Of a DNA stretch of 32,000 nucleotides, positions 1-21,400 are shown in pieces. The notes under the pieces were generated by a model. The model did not search any database. It was not told the DNA's origin and saw only the letters and a program-made list of their open reading frames with translations. The DNA comes from Candidatus Omnitrophota bacterium (GTDB taxonomy: Bacteria; Omnitrophota; Gorgyraeia; Zapsychrales; JANLHA01): the NCBI GenBank assembly GCA_963662715.1, contig OY759724.1:1-32000 (forward strand), given 5' to 3'. The translations under genes and the position numbers were made by a program. Every line of letters begins with the position of its first letter. The first letter of the stretch is position 1.

Positions 1-3000
1 CATTCATACTCACCCAATTAATCCCCATATCACTCATCACATTTATGTCCTGCCAGTTGATTCCTGTATCTGATAGAACATCCAAATCCTGCCAGTTGAT
101 CCCCGCATCACTCAGGATATCCAGATCCTGCCAGTTAATTCCCGCGTTCGTCATATCACTCATACTCACCCAGTTCATCCCCATATCACTCATCACATCT
201 ATATCCAGCCAGTTGATCCCCGCATCACTCAAATCATTCACACTCACCCAATTGATTCCCATATCACTCATCACATTCAAATCCTGCCAGTTGATCCCTG
301 TATCACTCAATACATCCAAATCCTGCCAGTTGATCCCTGCGTCACTCATCACATCTATGTCCAGCCAATTGATCCCCGCATCACTTAAATCATTCACACT
401 CACCCAATTAATCCCCATATCACTCATCACATTTATGTCCTGCCAATTAACCCCCGCATCACTCAACACATCAATATCCGACCAGTTGATTCCCGCATCT
501 GATAGGACATCCAAATCCGACCAATTGATCCCTGTATCACTTAACACATCCAAATCCTGCCAGTTGATCCCCGCGTCCGAAAGAACATCGATATCCACCC
601 AGTTGATCCCCGCATTCGTCATATCACTCATACTCACCCAGTTCATCCCCATATCACTCATCACATCGATATCCACCCAGTTGATCCCCGCGTCACTTAA
701 ATCATTCACACTCACCCAATTAATCCCCGCGTCACTCATCACATTTATGTCCTGCCAGTTGATTCCCGTATCTGAGAGTACATCCAAGTCCACCCAGTTG
801 ATCCCCGCATCACTCATCACATCGATGTCCAGCCAGTTTATCCCCGCGTCACTTAAATCATTCACACTCACCCAATTGATACCCATATCACTCATCACAT
901 CGATATCCAGCCAGTTGATCCCTGTATCACTTAACACATTCAAATCCTGCCAGTTGATCCCCGCATCGCTCAGCACATCCAGGTCCAGCCAGTTGATTCC
1001 TGCGTCCGAAAGAACATCGATGTCCTGCCAGTTGATCCCCGCATCACTCAGCACATCTATATCCAGCCAGTTTATCCCCGCGTCACTCATATCATTCACA
1101 CTCACCCAATTAATTCCCATATCACTCATCACATTTATGTCCTGCCAGTTGATTCCTGTATCTGAGAGTACATCCAAATCCCGCCAATTAATCCCCGCAT
1201 CACTTAACACATCCAAATCCGACCAGTTGATCCCTGTATCACTTAACACATCCAAATCCTGCCAGTTGATCCCCGCGTCCGAAAGAACATCGATGTCCAG
1301 CCAGTTGATCCCCGCATTCGTCATATCACTCATACTCACCCAGTTCATCCCCATATCACTCATCACATCAATGTCCTGCCAGTTTATCCCCGCATCACTT
1401 AAATCATTCACACTCAACCAATTAATCCCCATATCACTCATCACATTCAAATCCTGCCAGTTGATCCCTGTATCACTCAATACATCAATGTCCAACCAGT
1501 TGATCCCCGTATCACTCATCACATCGATATCCAGCCAGTTGATTCCCGCATCACTTAAATCATTCACACTCACCCAATTGATACCCATATCACTCATCAC
1601 ATTTATATCCTGCCAATTGATTCCCGTATCTGAGAGCACATCCAAGTCCAGCCAGTTGATCCCTGTATCACTTAATACATCAATGTCCAGCCAGTTTATC
1701 CCCGTATCTGAAAGAACATCCAAATCCACCCAGTTGATCCCCGCATCACTCATCACATCAATGTCCAGCCAGTTTATCCCCGCGTCACTCATATCATTCA
1801 CACTCACCCAATTAATCCCCATATCACTCATCACATTTATGTCCTGCCAGTTGATCCCCGTATCGCTTAATACATCAATATCCGACCAGTTGATCCCTAT
1901 ATCACTCATCACATTTATGTCCTGCCAGTTGATTCCTGTATCTGATAGAACATCCAAATCCTGCCAGTTGATCCCCGCATCACTCATCACATCTATATCC
2001 AGCCAGTTTATCCCCGCGTCACTTAAATCATTCACACTCACCCAATTAATCCCCATATCACTCATCACATTTATGTCCTGCCAGTTGATCCCTGTGTCAC
2101 TTAATACATCCAGGTCCAGCCAGTTGATCCCCGCGTCACTTAATACATCCAGGTCCAGCCAGTTTATTCCCGCATTCGTCATATCACTCATACTCACCCA
2201 GTTCATCCCCGTATCACTCATCACATCAATATCCAGCCAGTTGATCCCCGCATCACTTAAATCATTCACACTCACCCAATTGATACCCATATCACTCATC
2301 ACATTCAAATCCTGCCAGTTGATCCCTATATCACTCAATACATCAATGTCCAGCCAATTAATTCCCGCATCACTCATCACATTTATATCCTGCCAGTTGA
2401 TCCCCGTATCTGAAAGGACATCCAGGTCCAGCCAATTAATTCCCGTATCACTCATCACATCTATATCCAGCCAGTTGATCCCCGCATCACTTAAATCATT
2501 CACACTCACCCAATTGATCCCCATATCACTCATCACATTTATATCCTGCCAGTTGATCCCTGTATCACTCAATACATCCAAATCCTGCCAGTTGATCCCC
2601 GCATCACTTAATACATCAATATCTGACCAGTTGATCCTCGCATCACTTAATACATCAATATCTGCCCAGTTGATCCCCGCATCACTCATCACATTGATAT
2701 CCAGCCAGTTGATCCCCGCGTCACTCATATCATTCACACTCACCCAGTTAATCCCCATATCGCTCATCACATTCAAATCCTGCCAGTTGATCCCTGTATC
2801 GCTCAATACATCCAAATCCTGCCAGTTGATCCCCGCGTCACTTAACACATCCAGATCCTGCCAGTTAATTCCCGCGTTCGTCATATCACTCATACTCACC
2901 CAGTTTATCCCCATATCACTCATCACATCTATATCCAGCCAGTTGATCCCCGCGTCACTCATATCATTCACACTCACCCAATTGATTCCCATATCACTCA

Positions 3001-3432
3001 TCACATTTATGTCCTGCCAGTTGATCCCCGTATCCGAGAGCACATCCATATCCTGCCAGTTAATTCCCGTATCACTCATCACATCTATATCCAACCAGTT
3101 GATCCCCGCATTCGTCATATCACTCATACTCACCCAGTTCATCCCCGCATCACTCATCACATCGATGTCCAGCCAGTTTATCCCCGCGTCACTTAAATCA
3201 TTCACACTCACCCAATTAATCCCCATATCACTCATCACATTCAAATCCTGCCAGTTGATCCCCGTATCACTTAATACATCAATATCTGCCCAGTTGATCC
3301 CCGTATCACTCATCACATCTATATCCAGCCAGTTGATCCCCGCGTTCGTCATATCACTCATACTCACCCAGTTCATCCCCGTATCACTCATCACATCTAT
3401 GTCCAGCCAGTTGATCCCCGCGTCACTTAAAT
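1..3432 (-). repeat. HOR copy H1 (A-type, 88 units). The phase of the copy boundary is arbitrary.
   Basis: Fully parsed into 88 x 39 nt units. Variants include a at 20, cct at 2636-2638, gct at 2762-2764, and t at 2906. Confidence 0.9.
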
Positions 3433-6400
3433 CATTCATACTCACCCAATTGATCCCCATATCACTCATCACATTTATGTCCTGCCAGTTGATTCCTGTA
3501 TCTGATAGAACATCCAAATCCTGCCAGTTGATCCCCGCATCACTCAGGATATCCAGATCCTGCCAGTTAATTCCCGCGTTCGTCATATCACTCATACTCA
3601 CCCAGTTCATCCCCATATCACTCATCACATCTATATCCAGCCAGTTGATCCCCGCATCACTCAAATCATTCACACTCACCCAATTGATTCCCATATCACT
3701 CATCACATTCAAATCCTGCCAGTTGATCCCTGTATCACTCAATACATCCAAATCCTGCCAGTTGATCCCTGCGTCACTCATCACATCTATGTCCAGCCAA
3801 TTGATCCCCGCATCACTTAAATCATTCACACTCACCCAATTAATCCCCATATCACTCATCACATTTATGTCCTGCCAATTAACCCCCGCATCACTCAACA
3901 CATCAATATCCGACCAGTTGATTCCCGCATCTGATAGGACATCCAAATCCGACCAATTGATCCCTGTATCACTTAACACATCCAAATCCTGCCAGTTGAT
4001 CCCCGCGTCCGAAAGAACATCGATATCCACCCAGTTGATCCCCGCATTCGTCATATCACTCATACTCACCCAGTTCATCCCCATATCACTCATCACATCG
4101 ATATCCAGCCAGTTGATCCCCGCGTCACTTAAATCATTCACACTCACCCAATTAATCCCCGCGTCACTCATCACATTTATGTCCTGCCAGTTGATTCCCG
4201 TATCTGAGAGTACATCCAAGTCCACCCAGTTGATCCCCGCATCACTCATCACATCGATGTCCAGCCAGTTTATCCCCGCGTCACTTAAATCATTCACACT
4301 CACCCAATTGATACCCATATCACTCATCACATCGATATCCAGCCAGTTGATCCCTGTATCACTTAACACATTCAAATCCTGCCAGTTGATCCCCGCATCG
4401 CTCAGCACATCCAGGTCCAGCCAGTTGATTCCTGCGTCCGAAAGAACATCGATGTCCTGCCAGTTGATCCCCGCATCACTCAGCACATCTATATCCAGCC
4501 AGTTTATCCCCGCGTCACTCATATCATTCACACTCACCCAATTAATTCCCATATCACTCATCACATTTATGTCCTGCCAGTTGATTCCTGTATCTGAGAG
4601 TACATCCAAATCCCGCCAATTAATCCCCGCATCACTTAACACATCCAAATCCGACCAGTTGATCCCTGTATCACTTAACACATCCAAATCCTGCCAGTTG
4701 ATCCCCGCGTCCGAAAGAACATCGATGTCCAGCCAGTTGATCCCCGCATTCGTCATATCACTCATACTCACCCAGTTCATCCCCATATCACTCATCACAT
4801 CAATGTCCTGCCAGTTTATCCCCGCATCACTTAAATCATTCACACTCAACCAATTAATCCCCATATCACTCATCACATTCAAATCCTGCCAGTTGATCCC
4901 TGTATCACTCAATACATCAATGTCCAACCAGTTGATCCCCGTATCACTCATCACATCGATATCCAGCCAGTTGATTCCCGCATCACTTAAATCATTCACA
5001 CTCACCCAATTGATACCCATATCACTCATCACATTTATATCCTGCCAATTGATTCCCGTATCTGAGAGCACATCCAAGTCCAGCCAGTTGATCCCTGTAT
5101 CACTTAATACATCAATGTCCAGCCAGTTTATCCCCGTATCTGAAAGAACATCCAAATCCACCCAGTTGATCCCCGCATCACTCATCACATCAATGTCCAG
5201 CCAGTTTATCCCCGCGTCACTCATATCATTCACACTCACCCAATTAATCCCCATATCACTCATCACATTTATGTCCTGCCAGTTGATCCCCGTATCGCTT
5301 AATACATCAATATCCGACCAGTTGATCCCTATATCACTCATCACATTTATGTCCTGCCAGTTGATTCCTGTATCTGATAGAACATCCAAATCCTGCCAGT
5401 TGATCCCCGCATCACTCATCACATCTATATCCAGCCAGTTTATCCCCGCGTCACTTAAATCATTCACACTCACCCAATTAATCCCCATATCACTCATCAC
5501 ATTTATGTCCTGCCAGTTGATCCCTGTGTCACTTAATACATCCAGGTCCAGCCAGTTGATCCCCGCGTCACTTAATACATCCAGGTCCAGCCAGTTTATT
5601 CCCGCATTCGTCATATCACTCATACTCACCCAGTTCATCCCCGTATCACTCATCACATCAATATCCAGCCAGTTGATCCCCGCATCACTTAAATCATTCA
5701 CACTCACCCAATTGATACCCATATCACTCATCACATTCAAATCCTGCCAGTTGATCCCTATATCACTCAATACATCAATGTCCAGCCAATTAATTCCCGC
5801 ATCACTCATCACATTTATATCCTGCCAGTTGATCCCCGTATCTGAAAGGACATCCAGGTCCAGCCAATTAATTCCCGTATCACTCATCACATCTATATCC
5901 AGCCAGTTGATCCCCGCATCACTTAAATCATTCACACTCACCCAATTGATCCCCATATCACTCATCACATTTATATCCTGCCAGTTGATCCCTGTATCAC
6001 TCAATACATCCAAATCCTGCCAGTTGATCCCCGCATCACTTAATACATCAATATCTGACCAGTTGATCCCCGCATCACTTAATACATCAATATCTGCCCA
6101 GTTGATCCCCGCATCACTCATCACATTGATATCCAGCCAGTTGATCCCCGCGTCACTCATATCATTCACACTCACCCAGTTAATCCCCATATCACTCATC
6201 ACATTCAAATCCTGCCAGTTGATCCCTGTATCGCTCAATACATCCAAATCCTGCCAGTTGATCCCCGCGTCACTTAACACATCCAGATCCTGCCAGTTAA
6301 TTCCCGCGTTCGTCATATCACTCATACTCACCCAGTTCATCCCCATATCACTCATCACATCTATATCCAGCCAGTTGATCCCAGCGTCACTCATATCATT

Positions 6401-9400
6401 CACACTCACCCAATTGATTCCCATATCACTCATCACATTTATGTCCTGCCAGTTGATCCCCGTATCCGAGAGCACATCTATATCCAGCCAGTTAATTCCC
6501 GTATCACTCATCACATCTATATCCAACCAGTTGATCCCCGCATTCGTCATATCACTCATACTCACCCAGTTCATCCCCGCATCACTCATCACATCGATGT
6601 CCAGCCAGTTTATCCCCGCGTCACTTAAATCATTCACACTCACCCAATTAATCCCCATATCACTCATCACATTCAAATCCTGCCAGTTGATCCCCGTATC
6701 ACTTAATACATCAATATCTGCCCAGTTGATCCCCGTATCACTCATCACATCTATATCCAGCCAGTTGATCCCCGCGTTCGTCATATCACTCATACTCACC
6801 CAGTTCATCCCCGTATCACTCATCACATCTATGTCCAGCCAGTTGATCCCCGCGTCACTTAAATCATTCATACTTACCCAATTGATCCCCATATCACTCA
6901 TCACATTTATGTCCTGCCAGTTGATTCCTGTATCTGATAGAACATCCAAATCCTGCCAGTTGATCCCCGCATCACTCAGGATATCCAGATCCTGCCAGTT
7001 AATTCCCGCGTTCGTCATATCACTCATACTCACCCAGTTCATCCCCATATCACTCATCACATCTATATCCAGCCAGTTGATCCCCGCATCACTCAAATCA
7101 TTCACACTCACCCAATTGATTCCCATATCACTCATCACATTCAAATCCTGCCAGTTGATCCCTGTATCACTCAATACATCCAAATCCTGCCAGTTGATCC
7201 CTGCGTCACTCATCACATCTATGTCCAGCCAATTGATCCCCGCATCACTTAAATCATTCACACTCACCCAATTAATCCCCATATCACTCATCACATTTAT
7301 GTCCTGCCAATTAACCCCCGCATCACTCAACACATCAATATCCGACCAGTTGATTCCCGCATCTGATAGGACATCCAAATCCGACCAATTGATCCCTGTA
7401 TCACTTAACACATCCAAATCCTGCCAGTTGATCCCCGCGTCCGAAAGAACATCGATATCCACCCAGTTGATCCCCGCATTCGTCATATCACTCATACTCA
7501 CCCAGTTCATCCCCATATCACTCATCACATCGATATCCACCCAGTTGATCCCCGCGTCACTTAAATCATTCACACTCACCCAATTAATCCCCGCGTCACT
7601 CATCACATTTATGTCCTGCCAGTTGATTCCCGTATCTGAGAGTACATCCAAGTCCACCCAGTTGATCCCCGCATCACTCATCACATCGATGTCCAGCCAG
7701 TTTATCCCCGCGTCACTTAAATCATTCACACTCACCCAATTGATACCCATATCACTCATCACATCGATATCCAGCCAGTTGATCCCTGTATCACTTAACA
7801 CATTCAAATCCTGCCAGTTGATCCCCGCATCGCTCAGCACATCCAGGTCCAGCCAGTTGATTCCTGCGTCCGAAAGAACATCGATGTCCTGCCAGTTGAT
7901 CCCCGCATCACTCAGCACATCTATATCCAGCCAGTTTATCCCCGCGTCACTCATATCATTCACACTCACCCAATTAATTCCCATATCACTCATCACATTT
8001 ATGTCCTGCCAGTTGATTCCTGTATCTGAGAGTACATCCAAATCCCGCCAATTAATCCCCGCATCACTTAACACATCCAAATCCGACCAGTTGATCCCTG
8101 TATCACTTAACACATCCAAATCCTGCCAGTTGATCCCCGCGTCCGAAAGAACATCGATGTCCAGCCAGTTGATCCCCGCATTCGTCATATCACTCATACT
8201 CACCCAGTTCATCCCCATATCACTCATCACATCAATGTCCTGCCAGTTTATCCCCGCATCACTTAAATCATTCACACTCAACCAATTAATCCCCATATCA
8301 CTCATCACATTCAAATCCTGCCAGTTGATCCCTGTATCACTCAATACATCAATGTCCAACCAGTTGATCCCCGTATCACTCATCACATCGATATCCAGCC
8401 AGTTGATTCCCGCATCACTTAAATCATTCACACTCACCCAATTGATACCCATATCACTCATCACATTTATATCCTGCCAATTGATTCCCGTATCTGAGAG
8501 CACATCCAAGTCCAGCCAGTTGATCCCTGTATCACTTAATACATCAATGTCCAGCCAGTTTATCCCCGTATCTGAAAGAACATCCAAATCCACCCAGTTG
8601 ATCCCCGCATCACTCATCACATCAATGTCCAGCCAGTTTATCCCCGCGTCACTCATATCATTCACACTCACCCAATTAATCCCCATATCACTCATCACAT
8701 TTATGTCCTGCCAGTTGATCCCCGTATCGCTTAATACATCAATATCCGACCAGTTGATCCCTATATCACTCATCACATTTATGTCCTGCCAGTTGATTCC
8801 TGTATCTGATAGAACATCCAAATCCTGCCAGTTGATCCCCGCATCACTCATCACATCTATATCCAGCCAGTTTATCCCCGCGTCACTTAAATCATTCACA
8901 CTCACCCAATTAATCCCCATATCACTCATCACATTTATGTCCTGCCAGTTGATCCCTGTGTCACTTAATACATCCAGGTCCAGCCAGTTGATCCCCGCGT
9001 CACTTAATACATCCAGGTCCAGCCAGTTTATTCCCGCATTCGTCATATCACTCATACTCACCCAGTTCATCCCCGTATCACTCATCACATCAATATCCAG
9101 CCAGTTGATCCCCGCATCACTTAAATCATTCACACTCACCCAATTGATACCCATATCACTCATCACATTCAAATCCTGCCAGTTGATCCCTATATCACTC
9201 AATACATCAATGTCCAGCCAATTAATTCCCGCATCACTCATCACATTTATATCCTGCCAGTTGATCCCCGTATCTGAAAGGACATCCAGGTCCAGCCAAT
9301 TAATTCCCGTATCACTCATCACATCTATATCCAGCCAGTTGATCCCCGCATCACTTAAATCATTCACACTCACCCAATTGATCCCCATATCACTCATCAC

Positions 9401-12400
9401 ATTTATATCCTGCCAGTTGATCCCTGTATCACTCAATACATCCAAATCCTGCCAGTTGATCCCCGCATCACTTAATACATCAATATCTGACCAGTTGATC
9501 CTCGCATCACTTAATACATCAATATCTGCCCAGTTGATCCCCGCATCACTCATCACATTGATATCCAGCCAGTTGATCCCCGCGTCACTCATATCATTCA
9601 CACTCACCCAGTTAATCCCCATATCGCTCATCACATTCAAATCCTGCCAGTTGATCCCTGTATCGCTCAATACATCCAAATCCTGCCAGTTGATCCCCGC
9701 GTCACTTAACACATCCAGATCCTGCCAGTTAATTCCCGCGTTCGTCATATCACTCATACTCACCCAGTTTATCCCCATATCACTCATCACATCTATATCC
9801 AGCCAGTTGATCCCCGCGTCACTCATATCATTCACACTCACCCAATTGATTCCCATATCACTCATCACATTTATGTCCTGCCAGTTGATCCCCGTATCCG
9901 AGAGCACATCCATATCCTGCCAGTTAATTCCCGTATCACTCATCACATCTATATCCAACCAGTTGATCCCCGCATTCGTCATATCACTCATACTCACCCA
10001 GTTCATCCCCGCATCACTCATCACATCGATGTCCAGCCAGTTTATCCCCGCGTCACTTAAATCATTCACACTCACCCAATTAATCCCCATATCACTCATC
10101 ACATTCAAATCCTGCCAGTTGATCCCCGTATCACTTAATACATCAATATCTGCCCAGTTGATCCCCGTATCACTCATCACATCTATATCCAGCCAGTTGA
10201 TCCCCGCGTTCGTCATATCACTCATACTCACCCAGTTCATCCCCGTATCACTCATCACATCTATGTCCAGCCAGTTGATCCCCGCGTCACTTAAATCATT
10301 CATACTCACCCAATTGATCCCCATATCACTCATCACATTTATGTCCTGCCAGTTGATTCCTGTATCTGATAGAACATCCAAATCCTGCCAGTTGATCCCC
10401 GCATCACTCAGGATATCCAGATCCTGCCAGTTAATTCCCGCGTTCGTCATATCACTCATACTCACCCAGTTCATCCCCATATCACTCATCACATCTATAT
10501 CCAGCCAGTTGATCCCCGCATCACTCAAATCATTCACACTCACCCAATTGATTCCCATATCACTCATCACATTCAAATCCTGCCAGTTGATCCCTGTATC
10601 ACTCAATACATCCAAATCCTGCCAGTTGATCCCTGCGTCACTCATCACATCTATGTCCAGCCAATTGATCCCCGCATCACTTAAATCATTCACACTCACC
10701 CAATTAATCCCCATATCACTCATCACATTTATGTCCTGCCAATTAACCCCCGCATCACTCAACACATCAATATCCGACCAGTTGATTCCCGCATCTGATA
10801 GGACATCCAAATCCGACCAATTGATCCCTGTATCACTTAACACATCCAAATCCTGCCAGTTGATCCCCGCGTCCGAAAGAACATCGATATCCACCCAGTT
10901 GATCCCCGCATTCGTCATATCACTCATACTCACCCAGTTCATCCCCATATCACTCATCACATCGATATCCACCCAGTTGATCCCCGCGTCACTTAAATCA
11001 TTCACACTCACCCAATTAATCCCCGCGTCACTCATCACATTTATGTCCTGCCAGTTGATTCCCGTATCTGAGAGTACATCCAAGTCCACCCAGTTGATCC
11101 CCGCATCACTCATCACATCGATGTCCAGCCAGTTTATCCCCGCGTCACTTAAATCATTCACACTCACCCAATTGATACCCATATCACTCATCACATCGAT
11201 ATCCAGCCAGTTGATCCCTGTATCACTTAACACATTCAAATCCTGCCAGTTGATCCCCGCATCGCTCAGCACATCCAGGTCCAGCCAGTTGATTCCTGCG
11301 TCCGAAAGAACATCGATGTCCTGCCAGTTGATCCCCGCATCACTCAGCACATCTATATCCAGCCAGTTTATCCCCGCGTCACTCATATCATTCACACTCA
11401 CCCAATTAATTCCCATATCACTCATCACATTTATGTCCTGCCAGTTGATTCCTGTATCTGAGAGTACATCCAAATCCCGCCAATTAATCCCCGCATCACT
11501 TAACACATCCAAATCCGACCAGTTGATCCCTGTATCACTTAACACATCCAAATCCTGCCAGTTGATCCCCGCGTCCGAAAGAACATCGATGTCCAGCCAG
11601 TTGATCCCCGCATTCGTCATATCACTCATACTCACCCAGTTCATCCCCATATCACTCATCACATCAATGTCCTGCCAGTTTATCCCCGCATCACTTAAAT
11701 CATTCACACTCAACCAATTAATCCCCATATCACTCATCACATTCAAATCCTGCCAGTTGATCCCTGTATCACTCAATACATCAATGTCCAACCAGTTGAT
11801 CCCCGTATCACTCATCACATCGATATCCAGCCAGTTGATTCCCGCATCACTTAAATCATTCACACTCACCCAATTGATACCCATATCACTCATCACATTT
11901 ATATCCTGCCAATTGATTCCCGTATCTGAGAGCACATCCAAGTCCAGCCAGTTGATCCCTGTATCACTTAATACATCAATGTCCAGCCAGTTTATCCCCG
12001 TATCTGAAAGAACATCCAAATCCACCCAGTTGATCCCCGCATCACTCATCACATCAATGTCCAGCCAGTTTATCCCCGCGTCACTCATATCATTCACACT
12101 CACCCAATTAATCCCCATATCACTCATCACATTTATGTCCTGCCAGTTGATCCCCGTATCGCTTAATACATCAATATCCGACCAGTTGATCCCTATATCA
12201 CTCATCACATTTATGTCCTGCCAGTTGATTCCTGTATCTGATAGAACATCCAAATCCTGCCAGTTGATCCCCGCATCACTCATCACATCTATATCCAGCC
12301 AGTTTATCCCCGCGTCACTTAAATCATTCACACTCACCCAATTAATCCCCATATCACTCATCACATTTATGTCCTGCCAGTTGATCCCTGTGTCACTTAA

Positions 12401-15400
12401 TACATCCAGGTCCAGCCAGTTGATCCCCGCGTCACTTAATACATCCAGGTCCAGCCAGTTTATTCCCGCATTCGTCATATCACTCATACTCACCCAGTTC
12501 ATCCCCGTATCACTCATCACATCAATATCCAGCCAGTTGATCCCCGCATCACTTAAATCATTCACACTCACCCAATTGATACCCATATCACTCATCACAT
12601 TCAAATCCTGCCAGTTGATCCCTATATCACTCAATACATCAATGTCCAGCCAATTAATTCCCGCATCACTCATCACATTTATATCCTGCCAGTTGATCCC
12701 CGTATCTGAAAGGACATCCAGGTCCAGCCAATTAATTCCCGTATCACTCATCACATCTATATCCAGCCAGTTGATCCCCGCATCACTTAAATCATTCACA
12801 CTCACCCAATTGATCCCCATATCACTCATCACATTTATATCCTGCCAGTTGATCCCTGTATCACTCAATACATCCAAATCCTGCCAGTTGATCCCCGCAT
12901 CACTTAATACATCAATATCTGACCAGTTGATCCTCGCATCACTTAATACATCAATATCTGCCCAGTTGATCCCCGCATCACTCATCACATTGATATCCAG
13001 CCAGTTGATCCCCGCGTCACTCATATCATTCACACTCACCCAGTTAATCCCCATATCGCTCATCACATTCAAATCCTGCCAGTTGATCCCTGTATCGCTC
13101 AATACATCCAAATCCTGCCAGTTGATCCCCGCGTCACTTAACACATCCAGATCCTGCCAGTTAATTCCCGCGTTCGTCATATCACTCATACTCACCCAGT
13201 TCATCCCCATATCACTCATCACATCTATATCCAGCCAGTTGATCCCAGCGTCACTCATATCATTCACACTCACCCAATTGATTCCCATATCACTCATCAC
13301 ATTTATGTCCTGCCAGTTGATCCCCGTATCCGAGAGCACATCCATATCCTGCCAGTTAATTCCCGTATCACTCATCACATCTATATCCAACCAGTTGATC
13401 CCCGCATTCGTCATATCACTCATACTCACCCAGTTCATCCCCGCATCACTCATCACATCGATGTCCAGCCAGTTTATCCCCGCGTCACTTAAATCATTCA
13501 CACTCACCCAATTAATCCCCATATCACTCATCACATTCAAATCCTGCCAGTTGATCCCCGTATCACTTAATACATCAATATCTGCCCAGTTGATCCCCGT
13601 ATCACTCATCACATCTATATCCAGCCAGTTGATCCCCGCGTTCGTCATATCACTCATACTCACCCAGTTCATCCCCGTATCACTCATCACATCTATGTCC
13701 AGCCAGTTGATCCCCGCGTCACTTAAATCATTCATACTCACCCAATTGATCCCCATATCACTCATCACATTTATGTCCTGCCAGTTGATTCCTGTATCTG
13801 ATAGAACATCCAAATCCTGCCAGTTGATCCCCGCATCACTCAGGATATCCAGATCCTGCCAGTTAATTCCCGCGTTCGTCATATCACTCATACTCACCCA
13901 GTTCATCCCCATATCACTCATCACATCTATATCCAGCCAGTTGATCCCCGCATCACTCAAATCATTCACACTCACCCAATTGATTCCCATATCACTCATC
14001 ACATTCAAATCCTGCCAGTTGATCCCTGTATCACTCAATACATCCAAATCCTGCCAGTTGATCCCTGCGTCACTCATCACATCTATGTCCAGCCAATTGA
14101 TCCCCGCATCACTTAAATCATTCACACTCACCCAATTAATCCCCATATCACTCATCACATTTATGTCCTGCCAATTAACCCCCGCATCACTCAACACATC
14201 AATATCCGACCAGTTGATTCCCGCATCTGATAGGACATCCAAATCCGACCAATTGATCCCTGTATCACTTAACACATCCAAATCCTGCCAGTTGATCCCC
14301 GCGTCCGAAAGAACATCGATATCCACCCAGTTGATCCCCGCATTCGTCATATCACTCATACTCACCCAGTTCATCCCCATATCACTCATCACATCGATAT
14401 CCACCCAGTTGATCCCCGCGTCACTTAAATCATTCACACTCACCCAATTAATCCCCGCGTCACTCATCACATTTATGTCCTGCCAGTTGATTCCCGTATC
14501 TGAGAGTACATCCAAGTCCACCCAGTTGATCCCCGCATCACTCATCACATCGATGTCCAGCCAGTTTATCCCCGCGTCACTTAAATCATTCACACTCACC
14601 CAATTGATACCCATATCACTCATCACATCGATATCCAGCCAGTTGATCCCTGTATCACTTAACACATTCAAATCCTGCCAGTTGATCCCCGCATCGCTCA
14701 GCACATCCAGGTCCAGCCAGTTGATTCCTGCGTCCGAAAGAACATCGATGTCCTGCCAGTTGATCCCCGCATCACTCAGCACATCTATATCCAGCCAGTT
14801 TATCCCCGCGTCACTCATATCATTCACACTCACCCAATTAATTCCCATATCACTCATCACATTTATGTCCTGCCAGTTGATTCCTGTATCTGAGAGTACA
14901 TCCAAATCCCGCCAATTAATCCCCGCATCACTTAACACATCCAAATCCGACCAGTTGATCCCTGTATCACTTAACACATCCAAATCCTGCCAGTTGATCC
15001 CCGCGTCCGAAAGAACATCGATGTCCAGCCAGTTGATCCCCGCATTCGTCATATCACTCATACTCACCCAGTTCATCCCCATATCACTCATCACATCAAT
15101 GTCCTGCCAGTTTATCCCCGCATCACTTAAATCATTCACACTCAACCAATTAATCCCCATATCACTCATCACATTCAAATCCTGCCAGTTGATCCCTGTA
15201 TCACTCAATACATCAATGTCCAACCAGTTGATCCCCGTATCACTCATCACATCGATATCCAGCCAGTTGATTCCCGCATCACTTAAATCATTCACACTCA
15301 CCCAATTGATACCCATATCACTCATCACATTTATATCCTGCCAATTGATTCCCGTATCTGAGAGCACATCCAAGTCCAGCCAGTTGATCCCTGTATCACT

Positions 15401-18400
15401 TAATACATCAATGTCCAGCCAGTTTATCCCCGTATCTGAAAGAACATCCAAATCCACCCAGTTGATCCCCGCATCACTCATCACATCAATGTCCAGCCAG
15501 TTTATCCCCGCGTCACTCATATCATTCACACTCACCCAATTAATCCCCATATCACTCATCACATTTATGTCCTGCCAGTTGATCCCCGTATCGCTTAATA
15601 CATCAATATCCGACCAGTTGATCCCTATATCACTCATCACATTTATGTCCTGCCAGTTGATTCCTGTATCTGATAGAACATCCAAATCCTGCCAGTTGAT
15701 CCCCGCATCACTCATCACATCTATATCCAGCCAGTTTATCCCCGCGTCACTTAAATCATTCACACTCACCCAATTAATCCCCATATCACTCATCACATTT
15801 ATGTCCTGCCAGTTGATCCCTGTGTCACTTAATACATCCAGGTCCAGCCAGTTGATCCCCGCGTCACTTAATACATCCAGGTCCAGCCAGTTTATTCCCG
15901 CATTCGTCATATCACTCATACTCACCCAGTTCATCCCCGTATCACTCATCACATCAATATCCAGCCAGTTGATCCCCGCATCACTTAAATCATTCACACT
16001 CACCCAATTGATACCCATATCACTCATCACATTCAAATCCTGCCAGTTGATCCCTATATCACTCAATACATCAATGTCCAGCCAATTAATTCCCGCATCA
16101 CTCATCACATTTATATCCTGCCAGTTGATCCCCGTATCTGAAAGGACATCCAGGTCCAGCCAATTAATTCCCGTATCACTCATCACATCTATATCCAGCC
16201 AGTTGATCCCCGCATCACTTAAATCATTCACACTCACCCAATTGATCCCCATATCACTCATCACATTTATATCCTGCCAGTTGATCCCTGTATCACTCAA
16301 TACATCCAAATCCTGCCAGTTGATCCCCGCATCACTTAATACATCAATATCTGACCAGTTGATCCCCGCATCACTTAATACATCAATATCTGCCCAGTTG
16401 ATCCCCGCATCACTCATCACATTGATATCCAGCCAGTTGATCCCCGCGTCACTCATATCATTCACACTCACCCAGTTAATCCCCATATCACTCATCACAT
16501 TCAAATCCTGCCAGTTGATCCCTGTATCGCTCAATACATCCAAATCCTGCCAGTTGATCCCCGCGTCACTTAACACATCCAGATCCTGCCAGTTAATTCC
16601 CGCGTTCGTCATATCACTCATACTCACCCAGTTCATCCCCATATCACTCATCACATCTATATCCAGCCAGTTGATCCCAGCGTCACTCATATCATTCACA
16701 CTCACCCAATTGATTCCCATATCACTCATCACATTTATGTCCTGCCAGTTGATCCCCGTATCCGAGAGCACATCCATATCCTGCCAGTTAATTCCCGTAT
16801 CACTCATCACATCTATATCCAGCCAGTTGATCCCCGCATTCGTCATATCACTCATACTCACCCAGTTCATCCCCGCATCACTCATCACATCGATGTCCAG
16901 CCAGTTTATCCCCGCGTCACTTAAATCATTCACACTCACCCAATTAATCCCCATATCACTCATCACATTCAAATCCTGCCAGTTGATCCCCGTATCACTT
17001 AATACATCAATATCTGCCCAGTTGATCCCCGTATCACTCATCACATCTATATCCAGCCAGTTGATCCCCGCGTTCGTCATATCACTCATACTCACCCAGT
17101 TCATCCCCGTATCACTCATCACATCTATGTCCAGCCAGTTGATCCCCGCGTCACTTAAATCATTCATACTTACCCAATTGATCCCCATATCACTCATCAC
17201 ATTTATGTCCTGCCAGTTGATTCCTGTATCTGATAGAACATCCAAATCCTGCCAGTTGATCCCCGCATCACTCAGGATATCCAGATCCTGCCAGTTAATT
17301 CCCGCGTTCGTCATATCACTCATACTCACCCAGTTCATCCCCATATCACTCATCACATCTATATCCAGCCAGTTGATCCCCGCATCACTCAAATCATTCA
17401 CACTCACCCAATTGATTCCCATATCACTCATCACATTCAAATCCTGCCAGTTGATCCCTGTATCACTCAATACATCCAAATCCTGCCAGTTGATCCCTGC
17501 GTCACTCATCACATCTATGTCCAGCCAATTGATCCCCGCATCACTTAAATCATTCACACTCACCCAATTAATCCCCATATCACTCATCACATTTATGTCC
17601 TGCCAATTAACCCCCGCATCACTCAACACATCAATATCCGACCAGTTGATTCCCGCATCTGATAGGACATCCAAATCCGACCAATTGATCCCTGTATCAC
17701 TTAACACATCCAAATCCTGCCAGTTGATCCCCGCGTCCGAAAGAACATCGATATCCACCCAGTTGATCCCCGCATTCGTCATATCACTCATACTCACCCA
17801 GTTCATCCCCATATCACTCATCACATCGATATCCAGCCAGTTGATCCCCGCGTCACTTAAATCATTCACACTCACCCAATTAATCCCCGCGTCACTCATC
17901 ACATTTATGTCCTGCCAGTTGATTCCCGTATCTGAGAGTACATCCAAGTCCACCCAGTTGATCCCCGCATCACTCATCACATCGATATCCAGCCAGTTTA
18001 TCCCCGCGTCACTTAAATCATTCACACTCACCCAATTGATACCCATATCACTCATCACATCGATATCCAGCCAGTTGATCCCTGTATCACTTAACACATT
18101 CAAATCCTGCCAGTTGATCCCCGCATCGCTCAGCACATCCAGGTCCAGCCAGTTGATTCCCGTATCTGATAGAACATCCAAATCCTGCCAGTTGATCCCC
18201 GCATCACTCAGCACATCTATATCCAGCCAGTTTATCCCCGCGTCACTCATATCATTCACACTCACCCAATTAATTCCCATATCACTCATCACATTTATGT
18301 CCTGCCAGTTGATTCCTGTATCTGAGAGTACATCCAAATCCCGCCAATTAATCCCCGCATCACTTAACACATCCAAATCCGACCAGTTGATCCCTGTATC

Positions 18401-21400
18401 ACTTAACACATCCAAATCCTGCCAGTTGATCCCCGCGTCCGAAAGAACATCGATGTCCAGCCAGTTGATCCCCGCATTCGTCATATCACTCATACTCACC
18501 CAGTTCATCCCCATATCACTCATCACATCAATGTCCTGCCAGTTTATCCCCGCATCACTTAAATCATTCACACTCAACCAATTAATCCCCATATCACTCA
18601 TCACATTCAAATCCTGCCAGTTGATCCCTGTATCACTCAATACATCAATGTCCAACCAGTTGATCCCCGTATCACTCATCACATCGATATCCAGCCAGTT
18701 GATTCCCGCATCACTTAAATCATTCACACTCACCCAATTGATACCCATATCACTCATCACATTTATATCCTGCCAATTGATTCCCGTATCTGAGAGCACA
18801 TCCAAGTCCAGCCAGTTGATCCCTGTATCACTTAATACATCAATGTCCAGCCAGTTTATCCCCGTATCTGAAAGAACATCCAAATCCACCCAGTTGATCC
18901 CCGCGTCACTCATCACATCAATGTCCAGCCAGTTGATCCCCGCATCGCTCAAATCATTCACGCTCACCCAATTAATCCCCGCGTCACTCATCACATTCAA
19001 ATCCTGCCAGTTGATCCCCGTATCACTTAACACATCCATATCCGACCAGTTTATCCCCGCATCACTCAGGATATTCAAGTCCAACCAGTTAATTCCCGTA
19101 TCTGATAGCACATCCAAATCCTGCCAGTTGATCCCCGCATCACTCATCACATCTATGTCCAACCAGTTGATCCCCGCGTCACTCATATCATTCACACTCA
19201 CCCAATTGATCCCCATATCACTCATCACATTTATGTCCTGCCAGTTGATCCCCGTATCACTTAACACATCCATATCCGACCAGTTTATCCCCGCATCACT
19301 CAGGATATCCAAGTCCAGCCAGTTGATTCCCGCGTTCGTCATATCACTCATACTCACCCAGTTCATCCCCGTATCACTCATCACATCAATATCCAGCCAG
19401 TTGATCCCCGCGTCACTTAAATCATTCACACTCACCCAATTGATACCCATATCACTCATCACATTCAAATCCTGCCAGTTTATCCCTATATCACTCAATA
19501 CATCAATGTCCAGCCAATTAATTCCCGCATCACTCATCACATTTATATCCTGCCAGTTGATCCCCGTATCACTCATCACATCCAGATCGAGCCAATTAAT
19601 TCCCGTATCACTCATCACATCTATATCCAGCCAGTTGATCCCCGCATCACTTAAATCATTCACACTCACCCAATTGATCCCCATATCACTCATCACATTT
19701 ATATCCTGCCAGTTGATCCCTGTATCACTCAATACATCCAAATCCTGCCAGTTGATCCCCGTATCCGATAGCACATCTAAATCCTGCCAGTTGATCCCCG
19801 CATCACTTAATACATCTATGTCCAGCCAGTTGATCCCCGCATCACTCATCACATCGATGTCCAGCCAGTTTATCCCCGCGTCACTCATATCATTCACACT
19901 CACCCAGTTAATCCCCATATCGCTCATCACATTCAAATCCTGCCAGTTGATCCCTGTATCGCTCAATACATCCAAATCCTGCCAGTTAATCCCCGTATCC
20001 GAGAGCACATCCAGATCCAGCCAGTTGATTCCCGCATTCGTCATATCACTCATACTCACCCAGTTCATCCCCATATCACTCATCACATCTATGTCCAGCC
20101 AGTTGATCCCCGCGTCACTCATATCATTCACACTCACCCAGTTAATCCCCATGTCACTCATCACATTTATATCCTGCCAGTTGATCCCCGTATCCGAGAG
20201 CACATCCATATCCTGCCAGTTGATCCCCGCATCGCTCAGGATATCCAAGTCCAGCCAGTTGATCCCCGCGTTCGTCATATCACTCATACTCACCCAGTTC
20301 ATCCCGATATCACTCATCACATCGATATCCAGCCAGTTGATCCCCGCGTCACTCATATCATTCACACTCACCCAGTTAATCCCCATGTCACTCATCACAT
20401 TTATATCCTGCCAGTTGATCCCCGTATCCGAGAGCACATCTAAATCCTGCCAGTTGATCCCCGCATCGCTCAGGATATCCAAATCCAGCCAATTGATCCC
20501 CGCATTCGTCATATCACTCATACTCACCCAGTTCATCCCCGCATCACTCATCACATCGATATCCTGCCAGTTAATCCCCGCATCACTTAAATCATTCACG
20601 CTCACCCAGTTAATACCCATGTCACTCATAACATTTATGTCCTGCCAGTTGATCCCCGTATCCGATAGCACATCTAAATCCTGCCAGTTGATCCCCGCAT
20701 CACTCAGGATATCCAAGTCCAGCCAGTTAATTCCCGCGTTCGTCATATCACTCATACTTACCCAGTTCATCCCCGTATCACTCATCACATCGATATCCAG
20801 CCAGTTAATCCCCGCGTCACTTAAATCATTCACACTCACCCAATTGATCCCCATATCACTCATCACATTCAAATCCTGCCAGTTGATCCCCGTATCCGAG
20901 AGCACATCCAGATCCTGCCAGTTGATCCCCGCATCGCTCATCACATCGATGTCCAGCCAGTTGATCCCCGCGTCACTTAAATCATTCACACTCACCCAAT
21001 TGATCCCTATATCACTCATCACATTTATGTCCTGCCAATTAACCCCCGCATCACTTAACACATCAATATCCGACCAGTTGATCCCCGCATCTGATAGGAC
21101 ATCCAAATCCGACCAATTGATCCCTGTATCTGAAATAACATCAATGTCCGACCAGTTGATCCCCGCGTCCGAAAGAACATCGATATCCAGCCAGTTGATC
21201 CCCGCGTTCGTCATATCACTCATACTCACCCAGTTCATCCCCATATCACTCATCACATCGATATCCACCCAGTTGATCCCCGCATCACTTAAATCATTCA
21301 CACTCACCCAATTGATCCCCGCGTCACTCATCACATTTATGTCCTGCCAGTTGATCCCTGTATCACTCAATACATCCATATCCTGCCAGTTAATCCCCGC

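Follow-up and report, generated by a model that had tools for sequence, protein, structure and literature searches.

A giant acidic protein of Omnitrophota built from a 13-residue repeat

Does a long stretch of DNA composed entirely of short tandem repeats encode a protein and, if so, of what kind? The question was raised by a 32,000-nt stretch from a Candidatus Omnitrophota bacterium (hereafter the window), for which an initial annotation, made from the sequence alone, had described in positions 1-3432 a polyanionic 13-residue repeat, with one Trp per 13 residues, a restricted alphabet and about one Asp in five residues. It had further proposed that the repeat belongs to no recognized family and that it may fold as a tight beta-solenoid or beta-roll, with Asp ladders able to bind Ca2+ or other cations. 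We find that the description is correct in every respect and applies to a larger span than was reported, but that the interpretation is only partly supported: the repeat is indeed unrecognized, whereas the proposed beta structure is not supported.

The open frame and its hierarchy of repeats

The repeat fills all of the window, the array running off both its ends, and is read on the minus strand, which the initial annotation had not stated. Inspection of the reading frames, of the repeat units and of the longer periods led to the following features:

2..31999, minus strand: one open reading frame, partial at both ends, of 10,666 codons with no start or stop; the N-terminus lies beyond window position 32000 and the C-terminus beyond position 1.
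14..31993, minus strand: 820 complete tandem 13-residue (39-nt) units, with the consensus x-D-[LI]-[DN]-V-[LM]-S-D-x-G-I-N-W; class-B variant units, VS[VM][NS]D[LM][ST][DN]AGINW, occur on every even-parity slot only.
1..17160, minus strand: five copies of a 3432-nt (88-unit, 1144-aa) super-repeat, 99.8-99.9% identical to each other and differing at only 10 sites, all substitutions.
17161..20592, minus strand: sixth super-repeat copy, about 95% identical to the first block and about 92.5% identical to the last block.
20593..30888, minus strand: super-repeat copies 7-9, about 90% identical to copies 1-5 and 96.9-99.2% identical to each other.
30889..32000, minus strand: partial tenth super-repeat copy, cut by the end of the window (a marker 24-mer, present once per super-repeat, is found at 31324).
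3..32000, plus strand: an antisense frame that is also free of stops, a by-product of the restricted codon set of the true frame and not a gene.

Cutting the minus-strand translation after every Trp gave 820 units of exactly 13 residues and no other length, with no indel, representing 55 distinct peptide units and 180 distinct DNA units. The composition is D 2024 (19.0%), N 1194, I 1142, S 1073, V 966, L 917, W 821, G 817, M 714, A 425, T 292, Q 269 and R 12, and K, E, H, Y, F, C and P are absent. In the 820 units, N12 and W13 are invariant and G10 is present in 817, whereas position 11 is I in 744 units, M in 63 and V in 13. The 13-aa unit is organized into a 26-aa di-unit, as all 205 class-B units lie on one parity (205:0), into a block of about 78 aa, seen as a 234-nt period, and into the 1144-aa super-repeat, which is present 9.3 times; positions 1-3432 are exactly one such super-repeat. 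Both the 26-residue dimer and the 78-residue unit of the initial annotation are supported by these periods.

The absence of stops is not due to chance: 3.1% of random single-base changes would create a stop in this frame, and the probability of finding none after the 432 variable columns seen among the super-repeat copies is about 1e-6. Moreover, the comparison of codons at lag 3432 showed 319 synonymous against 127 non-synonymous differences, with S:N sites of 5785:26213, so that pN/pS is about 0.09, and the replacements are conservative. The plus-strand frame (frame 2), which would encode an S/I/L/T/Q/P-rich peptide, also has 0 stops in 10,666 codons. However, its third codon positions coincide with those of the minus frame, it shows weaker constraint, with synonymous to non-synonymous differences of 235:229 and radical replacements (I/K, E/L, N/R and D/L), and Pfam and NCBIfam gave no hit below E 0.26 for a 520-aa stretch of it; the only evidence from homologues is that the minus frame has relatives with E-values down to 1e-119. 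Its openness follows from the absence of Tyr and His in the true frame, and from Gln always following TGG, and we regard the possibility that it is the coding frame as all but excluded.

The near identity of copies 1-5 reflects either a very recent amplification or a copy number that only reads longer than 17 kb can fix. Together with the lack of any exact match to the marker 24-mer in collections of genome, metagenome and viral contigs, this could suggest a non-coding satellite or an assembly artefact, such as a looped or over-extended repeat. This is highly improbable. In addition to the evidence for constraint and against a chance lack of stops, copies 6-9 are 3-10% diverged in a graded pattern, which an assembler loop would not produce, the 10 differences among copies 1-5 are shared between copies in linked patterns, and homologous ORFs with the same repeat and with N- and C-terminal domains occur in about 80 independent loci (see also below). 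A eukaryotic satellite or a biomineralization protein was also considered, but was dropped after the first search for homologous proteins.

Relatives of the repeat and their genomic neighbourhood

A search for homologous proteins returned 23 hits, with E-values down to 4.6e-119, and all of the named ones are from Omnitrophota. We then found 280 stretches in GTDB species genomes, up to 73% identical, and 525 protein cluster representatives at E <= 1e-3, of which 32 at E <= 1e-30; the search was extended to JGI metagenomes, with matches up to 74% identical. Profile and phmmer E-values reach 1e-119 and 0. Three long hits from the search of representatives, P0115, P0173 and P0182, turned out to be unrelated repeat proteins with no NW periodicity, and among phages and plasmids we found no relatives, only compositional matches at 15-20% identity. 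The family defined in this way is nearly all from Omnitrophota metagenome-assembled genomes (MAGs), with the consensus x-D-[IL]-x-V-[LM]-[ST]-x-A-G-[IV]-N-W. A logo made from 5,800 units shows N12 at 99%, W13 at 100%, G10 at 92%, D2 at 78%, [LM]6 at 95% and [IV]11 at 97%; the window carries this signature, with 820 of 820 units of 13 residues, N and W in 820 and G in 817. The two-unit register is also found outside the window, as identity at even lags exceeds that at odd lags in 74 of 97 arrays from other loci.

Where the ends of a homologue are visible, the architecture is a Sec signal peptide or anchor, two Ig-like domains, the array (28 to more than 700 units) and a C-terminal coiled coil of 150-200 aa ending VVKTWFESE. 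The closest relatives are unannotated hypothetical proteins of Candidatus Omnitrophota, such as the MAG proteins HY209_05345 (here P0003, 868 aa) and PKO44_00005 (P0001), a 'LamG domain-containing protein' (P0024, 1292 aa) and, in a public MAG, a near-10-kaa acidic relative on JBFWOS010000001.1, where one gene is split by four 10-N gaps into 4790+980+787+1020+2340 aa. They share the 13-residue repeat, with invariant N-W, G10 and D2, and P0024 and several loci carry near-identical acidic units such as ADIDVLSDAGINW, TSINDMSDAGINW and ADLDVLSDTGINW; most arrays are depleted in K, R, H, Y, F, C and P. The window differs in having at least 820 uninterrupted units, whereas the longest uninterrupted runs seen elsewhere are of 28 to about 413 units, or about 710 units summed over the five gap-separated pieces in JBFWOS010000001.1. 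It also has a narrower alphabet, with no E, K or F at all, and a 3.4-kb super-repeat amplified to near identity, and lacks, within the 32 kb, the conserved hinge 'AYMTGSGVNW-xExINW-DNLAEL'.

In every related locus where a gene end is visible, the gene lies on the same strand between, upstream, a GspC-like protein, a PilQ-like secretin, a PilW-like TPR protein and usually two FGE-sulfatase-domain proteins and, downstream, a 435-aa signal-peptide/TM protein, an F-type ATPase operon and PilB. All 37 loci with a 3' end have the 435-aa gene, atpA, atpD and, where the flank reaches, PilB on the same strand; of 29 loci with a 5' end, 26 have the secretin, 25 the TPR gene and 19 the two FGE genes. This matches the F-type ATPase/type IVa pilus locus linked to host attachment by Seymour et al. 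(2023; PMC10066038), although the ATPase alpha subunit passes the ordinary atpA model cut-off, and the link to a 'symbiotic' ATPase is by locus architecture only. Most short-read contigs break inside the array, so that the gene is fragmented in most public assemblies and its true size, and probably its strain-level length variation, are hidden in public data.

Comparison with known repeats and the predicted fold

No Pfam or NCBIfam model reaches its threshold on a single unit, and sequence and profile searches of the PDB gave nothing significant. Scans of both open frames returned only summed, sub-threshold or spurious hits (Ntox33, BNR_6, MAGI_u1, DUF7409, GlrX_YruB and DMC1), which were rejected as family assignments because no single stretch is significant. 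Lysostaphin_N, a protein which also has 13-residue repeats, gave weak hits to the frame of the window (E 0.18) and to the protein P0002, but the scores of 12-27 bits fall well below the cut-off of 60. The families that the initial annotation had set aside can also be excluded: the period of 13 in 820 of 820 units and the single Gly per unit do not agree with the 9-residue period and GGxGxD turn of the RTX nonapeptide beta-roll (GGxGxDxUx), and no RTX/HemolysinCabind model appeared even at E <= 10; likewise, the periods of 13/26/78/1144 are not those of pentapeptide (5), LRR (20-30) or ice-nucleation (16/48) repeats, none of which passes threshold in Pfam, a single sub-threshold LRR_10 hit (E 0.062) being seen in 1 of 60 segments.

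The nearest Pfam signal is the BNR/Asp-box repeat (PF02012, PF15899; motif S-x-D-x-G-x-T-W), a beta-hairpin motif which shares the sub-motif D-x-G-x-[T/N]-W. The summed score over 40 units is 55.9 bits and 33 of 60 four-unit segments give weak hits, which fall on 'SDAGINW'. However, no stretch is significant on its own, the best four-unit segment scores 20.9 bits against a cut-off of 27, the Ser is one residue closer to the Gly, and the defining Asp, position 8 here, is only 35% conserved in the family; in addition, Asp-boxes occur once per roughly 40-70-residue propeller blade, not every 13 residues. The only solved structural context found in which the G-I-N...D-L...L...G pattern occurs is the helix-hairpin-helix motif of the Rad51/DMC1 N-terminal domain (for example, yeast Dmc1 LQNYGINASDLQKLKSGGI), which has the same spacing of conserved residues, [L]-x-x-x-G-I-N-x-x-D-[LIV]-x-x-L-x-x-x-G-[IF], and is helix-turn-helix. 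The similarity is not significant, with E-values of 0.62-1.7 for DMC1 in the PDB profile searches, an NCBIfam DMC1 score of 34 bits against a cut-off of 447.7, and no Pfam HHH model reported. Rad51/DMC1 has one such element per protein and no Trp, and binding of DNA phosphates, as by HhH motifs, is implausible for a secreted polyanion; we take it as a structural lead only, not as homology.

Two AlphaFold predictions were obtained, and they disagree. For 26 units of the window the model showed a 10-residue strand (INWxDxDV[LM]S) and a 3-residue D-x-G turn per unit, but with a pLDDT of 46.7, and Foldseek placed it nearest to right-handed beta-helix proteins with a best E-value of 0.045, which is not significant. 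For P0003, with natural homologues, the model showed a 9-residue helix plus a 4-residue loop per unit, at a pLDDT of about 40; in this model only the Ig-like N-terminal domains matched anything by Foldseek. As both have a pLDDT below 50 in the repeat, neither is reliable. The sequence statistics, in contrast, point to helices. The hydrophobic moment is 0.34-0.37 at 110-120 degrees, a period near 3, against about 0.2 at 160-180 degrees. The top mutual-information pairs, at separations of 3 and 4 rather than 2, are 4-8, 2-5, 5-8 and 1-4 (without correction for the relatedness of units), and S2/D5 and N2/E5 swaps are 9-fold and 6-fold enriched. The conserved residues read as a helix N-capping box with a hydrophobic staple, plus a Schellman C-cap, and the strict two-unit period favours short capped helices paired as 26-residue hairpins. 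Conservation periodicity alone is ambiguous, with a power of 5.2-5.4 at 100-110 degrees and a secondary peak of 4.4-4.8 at 150-160 degrees. A beta-solenoid, beta-roll or beta-meander, in which each unit or pair of units would form one rung, with D-x-G turns and stacked Asn, Trp and Asp ladders binding Ca2+, is further weakened by the finding that conserved hydrophobic residues fall on both faces of the putative strand, and that two of the three Asp positions (4 and 8) are variable surface positions across the family and not a conserved ladder. We consider this model unlikely, although cation binding remains possible.

The low confidence of both models, the very high charge density (19% Asp and almost no base) and the restricted alphabet could also indicate that the array has no stable fold and acts as a disordered, polyanionic entropic brush or spacer. 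We regard this as very unlikely, since conservation across the family is near-absolute at N12, W13, G10, [IV]11, [LM]6 and [ST]7, purifying selection is strong, 820 units show no indels, the two-unit register is strict, about 43% of the residues are hydrophobic (I, L, V, M and W) and there is no Pro, none of which is typical of disordered polyanions.

An inferred surface fibre

What the analysis shows is that the window is an internal piece of a single minus-strand gene, encoding at least 10,666 residues made only of the hierarchical repeat, and that this gene is a hyper-expanded, strongly acidic member of the family whose architecture and neighbours are described above. The rest of our explanation, which we favour with moderate confidence, is inferred. 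As the window contains no gene end, its assignment as the ortholog at the pilus/ATPase locus, with the signal peptide, Ig-like domains and C-terminal tail, is extrapolated from homologues that are at most 74% identical. Each unit would be a short alpha-helix, from W13 to A9, N-capped by N12 with D2 as the capping-box partner and with [IV]11 and [IL]3 as a hydrophobic staple, and closed by a Schellman-type A9-G10-[IV]11 turn; two units would form a 26-residue helical hairpin, and the hairpins would stack into a thin solenoid or rod. In this view, the variable positions 1, 4 and 8, in this protein mostly Asp or Asn, lie on the exposed helix face, giving a continuous negative stripe (about -0.19 charge per residue) that could bind divalent cations or repel surfaces. 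The protein would be exported, possibly through the neighbouring secretin, and form a long, length-variable, polyanionic fibre or tether on the surface of a nano-sized epibiont, its length being set by unequal recombination within the array; export, surface location and cation binding are all inferred from sequence and locus alone.

A bolder reading, compatible with the evidence but tentative and in our view rather unlikely, is that the unit defines a previously undescribed protein architecture, a continuous chain of about 10-residue alpha-helices, each closed by a capping box and a Schellman turn and paired into 26-residue hairpins, which could polymerize in cis to micrometre length. In Omnitrophota this rod would be the conserved, so far overlooked surface filament of the type IVa pilus/F-type ATPase 'symbiosis' locus, the tether or 'leg' by which these nanobacteria hold or move on host cells, with the polyanionic stripe binding divalent cations or host surfaces.

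Omnitrophota are abundant, uncultured, ultra-small bacteria thought to live attached to other cells, and the role of their giant genes is an open question. Among the roughly 80 related loci examined here, nearly all from Omnitrophota MAGs, this giant gene type is not idiosyncratic, but recurs, where gene ends are visible, at one fixed locus already proposed to mediate host attachment. If the array is a cation-binding polyanionic fibre of about 0.2-0.8 um, a rough estimate from the unit count, it exceeds the diameter of the cell itself, which would change how contact between these epibionts and their hosts is pictured. The sequence logic (capping box, Schellman turn and one Trp per unit) also gives a concrete hypothesis for a minimal helical-repeat fold, which could interest protein designers.

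Giant repetitive surface adhesins, such as the RTX adhesins MpIBP and LapA, Flavobacterium SprB and the gliding legs Gli349/Gli521 of Mycoplasma mobile, are likewise very long, exported, tandem-repeat proteins used as extenders or tethers; some are Ca2+-rigidified and acidic, and the M. mobile machinery also pairs giant surface proteins with an F1-like ATPase. Their repeats, however, are Ig-like (about 100 aa), RTX nonapeptide or other folded domains, not a 13-residue unit, and no sequence similarity was found in the Pfam and PDB searches; the functional parallel is an analogy, not evidence.

In the literature, a search for the motif string 'GINW' returned only surnames and other unrelated text, one for Omnitrophota together with secretin returned nothing relevant, and neither the two papers on giant Omnitrophota genes that we searched (West-Roberts et al., 2023, bioRxiv 10.1101/2023.11.21.568195; Nielsen and Lui, 2026, bioRxiv 10.64898/2026.06.07.730766) nor the survey of Seymour et al. 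describe the repeat. The giant proteins in the former two, the Archaeovorins and dockerin-type giants and the multi-enzyme, tandem-repeat-scaffold and dockerin classes, respectively, come from the same phylum, exceed 10,000 aa, are predicted to be exported and are thought to function in cell-cell contact. They are, however, defined by HEAT or TPR repeats with enzyme domains and many TM helices, or by dockerin/TSP3, WD, NHL or lectin Pfam repeats; HEAT, TPR, dockerin and TSP3 families were not hit in the window or in complete homologues. With no Pfam model reaching threshold, the array would fall into the 137 'Pfam-dark' proteins left uncharacterized by Nielsen and Lui (2026). It is also a largely intact nucleotide tandem, whereas only 5% of the long genes in that preprint are reported to have at least 50% of the CDS in tandems.

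Repeat organisation and coding strand

A listing of ORFs returned no entry, because every long ORF runs off the window, and we counted stop codons in all six frames. Two frames have no stop in 10,666 codons: offset 1 of the minus strand and offset 2 of the plus strand. The product of the minus frame uses only Asp, Asn, Ile, Ser, Val, Leu, Trp, Gly, Met, Ala, Thr and Gln, plus 12 Arg residues, and Asp accounts for 2024 of the 10,666 residues (19.0%). When the sequence is cut after each Trp, 820 units are obtained, all exactly 13 residues long, with 55 distinct peptide variants and 180 distinct DNA variants. Thus, the initial annotation, which had described an Asp-rich, 13-residue repeat at positions 1-3432, was correct in its description, but the description applies to the whole window. 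The composition of the two DNA strands is extremely skewed: the coding (minus) strand is 35.3% G and 10.8% C, with a GC skew of about +0.53 sustained over 32 kb (window 1-32000), and codon choice is dominated by GAT, AGT, TGG, GTG, ATG and GGG.

Tandem Repeats Finder reported periods of 234 and 390 nt; autocorrelation showed a dominant super-repeat of 88 units, that is, 3432 nt, which is exactly the interval delimited by the initial annotation. Identity between super-repeats is 98.0% at lag 1 and falls to 91.1% at lag 5. A copy-by-copy identity matrix gave the following picture:

Window 1-17160, minus strand: copies 1-5, 99.8-99.9% identical.
Copy 6, minus strand: about 95% identical to the block of copies 1-5.
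Copies 7-9, minus strand: about 90% identical to the first block.

Only 10 sites vary among copies 1-5; all are substitutions, and they are shared between copies in linked patterns, with, for example, the variants at positions 2638 and 2762 of the block shared by copies 2 and 5. This argues for real, very recent amplification rather than an assembler loop, although the pattern may also reflect gene conversion, and the exact copy number still depends on very long reads (longer than 17 kb).

Several lines of evidence identify the minus strand as the coding strand. Per-column entropy over the 820 aligned units is 0.66, 0.38 and 0.89 for codon positions 1, 2 and 3 of the minus frame. Between neighbouring super-repeats there are 319 synonymous and 127 non-synonymous codon differences, for a site ratio of 5785 synonymous to 26213 non-synonymous, so that pN/pS is about 0.09; the replacements are I/L, L/M, A/T, L/V, I/V and D/N. 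In addition, 3.1% of random single-base changes would create a stop in the minus frame, and the chance of finding no stop after the 432 variable columns among the super-repeat copies is about 1e-6. The alternative frame is:

Window 3-32000, plus strand, frame 2: free of stops over all 10,666 codons, encoding a peptide rich in Ser, Ile, Leu, Thr, Gln and Pro.

The plus frame shares its third codon positions with the minus frame, so it also looks somewhat constrained, but it shows 235 synonymous against 229 non-synonymous differences and its replacements are radical (I/K, E/L, N/R, D/L); it looks like a by-product of the restricted codon set. The decisive evidence is homology: the minus-frame protein has relatives with E-values down to 4.6e-119, whereas the plus frame, of which a 520-aa stretch was scanned against Pfam and NCBIfam only, gave no hit below an E-value of 0.26.

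Relatives, architecture and genomic locus

All named hits of a first protein search are hypothetical proteins of Candidatus Omnitrophota. A profile search of 1.84 billion cluster representatives found 525 proteins at E <= 1e-3, 163 at 1e-10 and 32 at 1e-30, the longest true members having 2809 and 2304 aa. A scan of one genome per GTDB species found 280 stretches in 71 loci, up to 73% identical; nearly all are Omnitrophota MAGs, or MAGs labelled 'uncultured Planctomycetales', a label carried by many Omnitrophota-like MAGs. Short contigs consisting almost only of this repeat (loci L006, L007, L009, L044, L050 and L063) are binned into MAGs labelled Sphingomonadales, Pacearchaeota, Woesearchaeota, Gallionellaceae, Synechococcales and Rhodobacteraceae, and are probably binning contaminants from Omnitrophota. 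JGI metagenomes added 11 loci, up to 74% identical, and no relatives were found in the phage and plasmid collections searched. Shorter runs, of 6-15 GINW-like units, occur in other multidomain extracellular proteins with different N-terminal regions (proteins P0049, P0082, P0088, P0102 and P0018; in P0018 the NW spacing is irregular rather than 13), and the unit may therefore be a mobile module beyond the Omnitrophota ortholog.

In almost every locus the ORF runs off a contig end, so short-read assemblies break in this array. The visible arrays reach 413, 353, 338, 336 and 301 units, and most are acidic, with D+E at 14-22% and K+R at 0-4%. One 1.2-Mb contig of a public Omnitrophota MAG (JBFWOS010000001.1, about 343,000-380,000; loci L033, L054 and L060) carries the whole gene, an ortholog of about 9,900 aa and about 710 units, split by four 10-N scaffold gaps into five ORFs of 4790+980+787+1020+2340 aa; it is likely to be annotated as several separate hypothetical proteins. 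The 820 or more uninterrupted units of the window form the longest array that we could find, but the phenomenon itself is widespread.

Homologues with visible ends begin with a signal peptide or anchor, followed by two Ig-like beta-sandwich domains, predicted by AlphaFold with pLDDT above 90 and with Foldseek hits to Ig-like domains of BbgIII, Sap and cadherins. A few short 'KTDTINW' repeats precede the 13-mer array, which often carries a conserved hinge, 'AYMTGSGVNW-xExINW-DNLAEL'. This interruption, 'DLAYMTGSGVNW-(x)E(x)INW-DNLAELxxAGVNW', was seen in proteins P0001, P0004, P0005, P0024, P0025 and P0034 and in the L060 gene (about residues 560-600), and in most homologues separates a first block of about 10 units from the rest; it could be a hinge or a processing site, and does not occur within the window. 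The homologues end in a helical C-terminus of 150-200 residues that closes with VVKTWFESE or a close variant; in L025, L037, L076-L083, P0003, P0005, P0024 and P0075 the extreme C-terminus is conserved as [VI]VVK[TA][WY]FE[ST][EGD], and an aromatic-acidic tail after a coiled coil could be a sorting or anchoring signal.

Gene order around the repeat gene in these loci is conserved and co-directional, with overlapping or very short intergenic gaps: GT2, DUF2304, GT2, GspC-like, PilQ/GspD-like secretin, PilW-like TPR, two FGE-sulfatase domain genes (not in all loci), the repeat gene, a 435-aa signal-peptide/TM protein, the F-type ATPase operon, PilB, PilC and pilin. Among the loci fetched, all 37 with the 3' end show the 435-aa gene, atpA and atpD, and 25 reach PilB; of the 29 with the 5' end, 26 show the secretin, 25 the TPR gene and 19 the two FGE genes. 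The latter (PF03781; for example, at 6796-9991 of locus L001, and also in L003, L023, L028, L029 and others) lie in tandem immediately upstream of the repeat gene. Since the repeat has no Cys or Pro, it lacks the usual CxPxR target, and the FGE proteins could be structural, like GldJ/GldK, or modifying enzymes. The ATPase alpha subunit passes the ordinary atpA cut-off, and any link to a 'symbiotic' ATPase clade is by locus architecture only. The gene order is the arrangement described as F-type ATPase/type IVa pilus loci, present in every class of the phylum and proposed to act in attachment and motility on host cells (Seymour et al., 2023; PMC10066038). The passages searched in that paper and in two preprints on giant genes (West-Roberts et al., 2023, bioRxiv 10.1101/2023.11.21.568195; Nielsen and Lui, 2026, bioRxiv 10.64898/2026.06.07.730766), as well as our literature searches, brought up no mention of the repeat gene; the preprints define other classes, and one leaves 137 giant proteins 'Pfam-dark'.

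Known repeat families and the predicted fold

Searches of Pfam, NCBIfam and the PDB gave no significant match per unit. The most consistent weak signal is to the BNR/Asp-box, through the shared D-x-G-x-[T/N]-W, but the best segment scores 20.9 bits against a cut-off of 27, the Ser spacing differs, and the defining Asp is only 35% conserved across the family. A second weak signal is to the helix-hairpin-helix of the DMC1/Rad51 N-terminal domain ('LQNYGINASDLQKLKSGGI'), which has the same spacing of G-I-N, D-[LIV], L and G, but with E-values of 0.6-1.7; we treat it as a structural lead only. Thus, the claim of the initial annotation that the repeat is unrecognised is supported.

Two AlphaFold runs disagree. 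For 26 units of the window, with window copies plus homologue segments as the alignment, a 10-residue strand plus a D-x-G turn was predicted per 13-residue unit, with a mean pLDDT of 46.7; for full-length P0003 (an 868-aa Omnitrophota homologue), with 20 natural homologues, a 9-residue helix plus a 4-residue loop was predicted per unit, with a pLDDT of about 40 in the repeat. Neither model is reliable, and we turned to sequence statistics on 5,800 distinct units from 74 loci.

Residues and their frequency at each position of the 13-residue unit across the family (5,800 distinct units, 74 loci)
Position 1: variable
Position 2: D 78%
Position 3: I/L
Position 4: variable
Position 5: V 46%
Position 6: L/M 95%
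Position 7: S/T 94%
Position 8: variable
Position 9: A 58%
Position 10: G 92%
Position 11: I/V 97%
Position 12: N 99%
Position 13: W 100%

Read as a helix running from W13 to A9, this pattern gives a textbook set of helix-end signals. N12 would be the N-cap, with D2, at the N3 position, as its capping-box partner; [IV]11 (N') and [IL]3 (N4) would form a hydrophobic staple; and [LM]6 (C3), G10 (C') and [IV]11 (C'') would form a Schellman motif. The three variable positions, 1, 4 and 8, then fall on one helical face. Four quantitative results agree with this reading. First, the hydrophobic moment peaks at 110-120 degrees (0.34-0.37), against about 0.2 at 160-180 degrees. Second, the top mutual-information pairs are 4-8, 2-5, 5-8 and 1-4, and mean mutual information, although not corrected for the shared ancestry of units, is highest at separations 3 and 4 and lower at 2. 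Third, the acidic residue swaps between positions 2 and 5, S2/D5 being 9-fold and N2/E5 6-fold enriched. Fourth, a strict two-unit register exists: all 205 class-B units of the window (variants of the form x-S-x-x-D) share one parity, and even-lag identity exceeds odd-lag identity in 74 of 97 arrays, which fits two helices per structural repeat. Conservation periodicity alone, however, is ambiguous. On this evidence, which comes from sequence and prediction alone, we favour the capped-helix hairpin model with moderate confidence; a beta-type fold appears unlikely, and the absence of a stable fold more unlikely still. The beta-solenoid with a possible role in Ca2+ binding, proposed in the initial annotation, is not supported, so that its interpretation held only in part.

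Inferred mechanism

Our analysis establishes that the region is a coding, strongly constrained and hierarchically amplified array, and that it belongs to a family of predicted secreted proteins fixed in the pilus/ATPase locus in the related loci examined; what follows is inferred. The protein would be exported by Sec and reach the surface, possibly through the co-transcribed secretin, and there the array would form a thin rod. Its length would scale with unit number: at roughly 0.25-1 nm per unit, 820 units give on the order of 0.2-0.8 um, which is at least the size of cells that pass 0.45-um filters. The positions exposed in this model are mostly Asp or Asn in this protein, and D4-D8 pairs are enriched 2-fold family-wide; this gives about -0.19 charge per residue, which would favour binding of divalent cations or electrostatic extension. 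The near-identical 3.4-kb blocks would make the array prone to unequal recombination, and hence to rapid change in length.

Giant repetitive bacterial surface proteins are already known; the repeat family to which this gene belongs, as an extreme member, is undescribed. What stands out is the combination of a 13-residue unit with no match in the databases searched, its conservation in one functionally suggestive locus across the related loci examined, and its systematic fragmentation in public assemblies. Very long arrays are not restricted to the polyanionic variant, as one relative (locus L055; CAZSFZ010000001.1, 38,546-60,027) has at least 413 units, in at least 5,803 aa running off the fetched flank, with a balanced charge (D+E 7.8% and K+R 6.8%).
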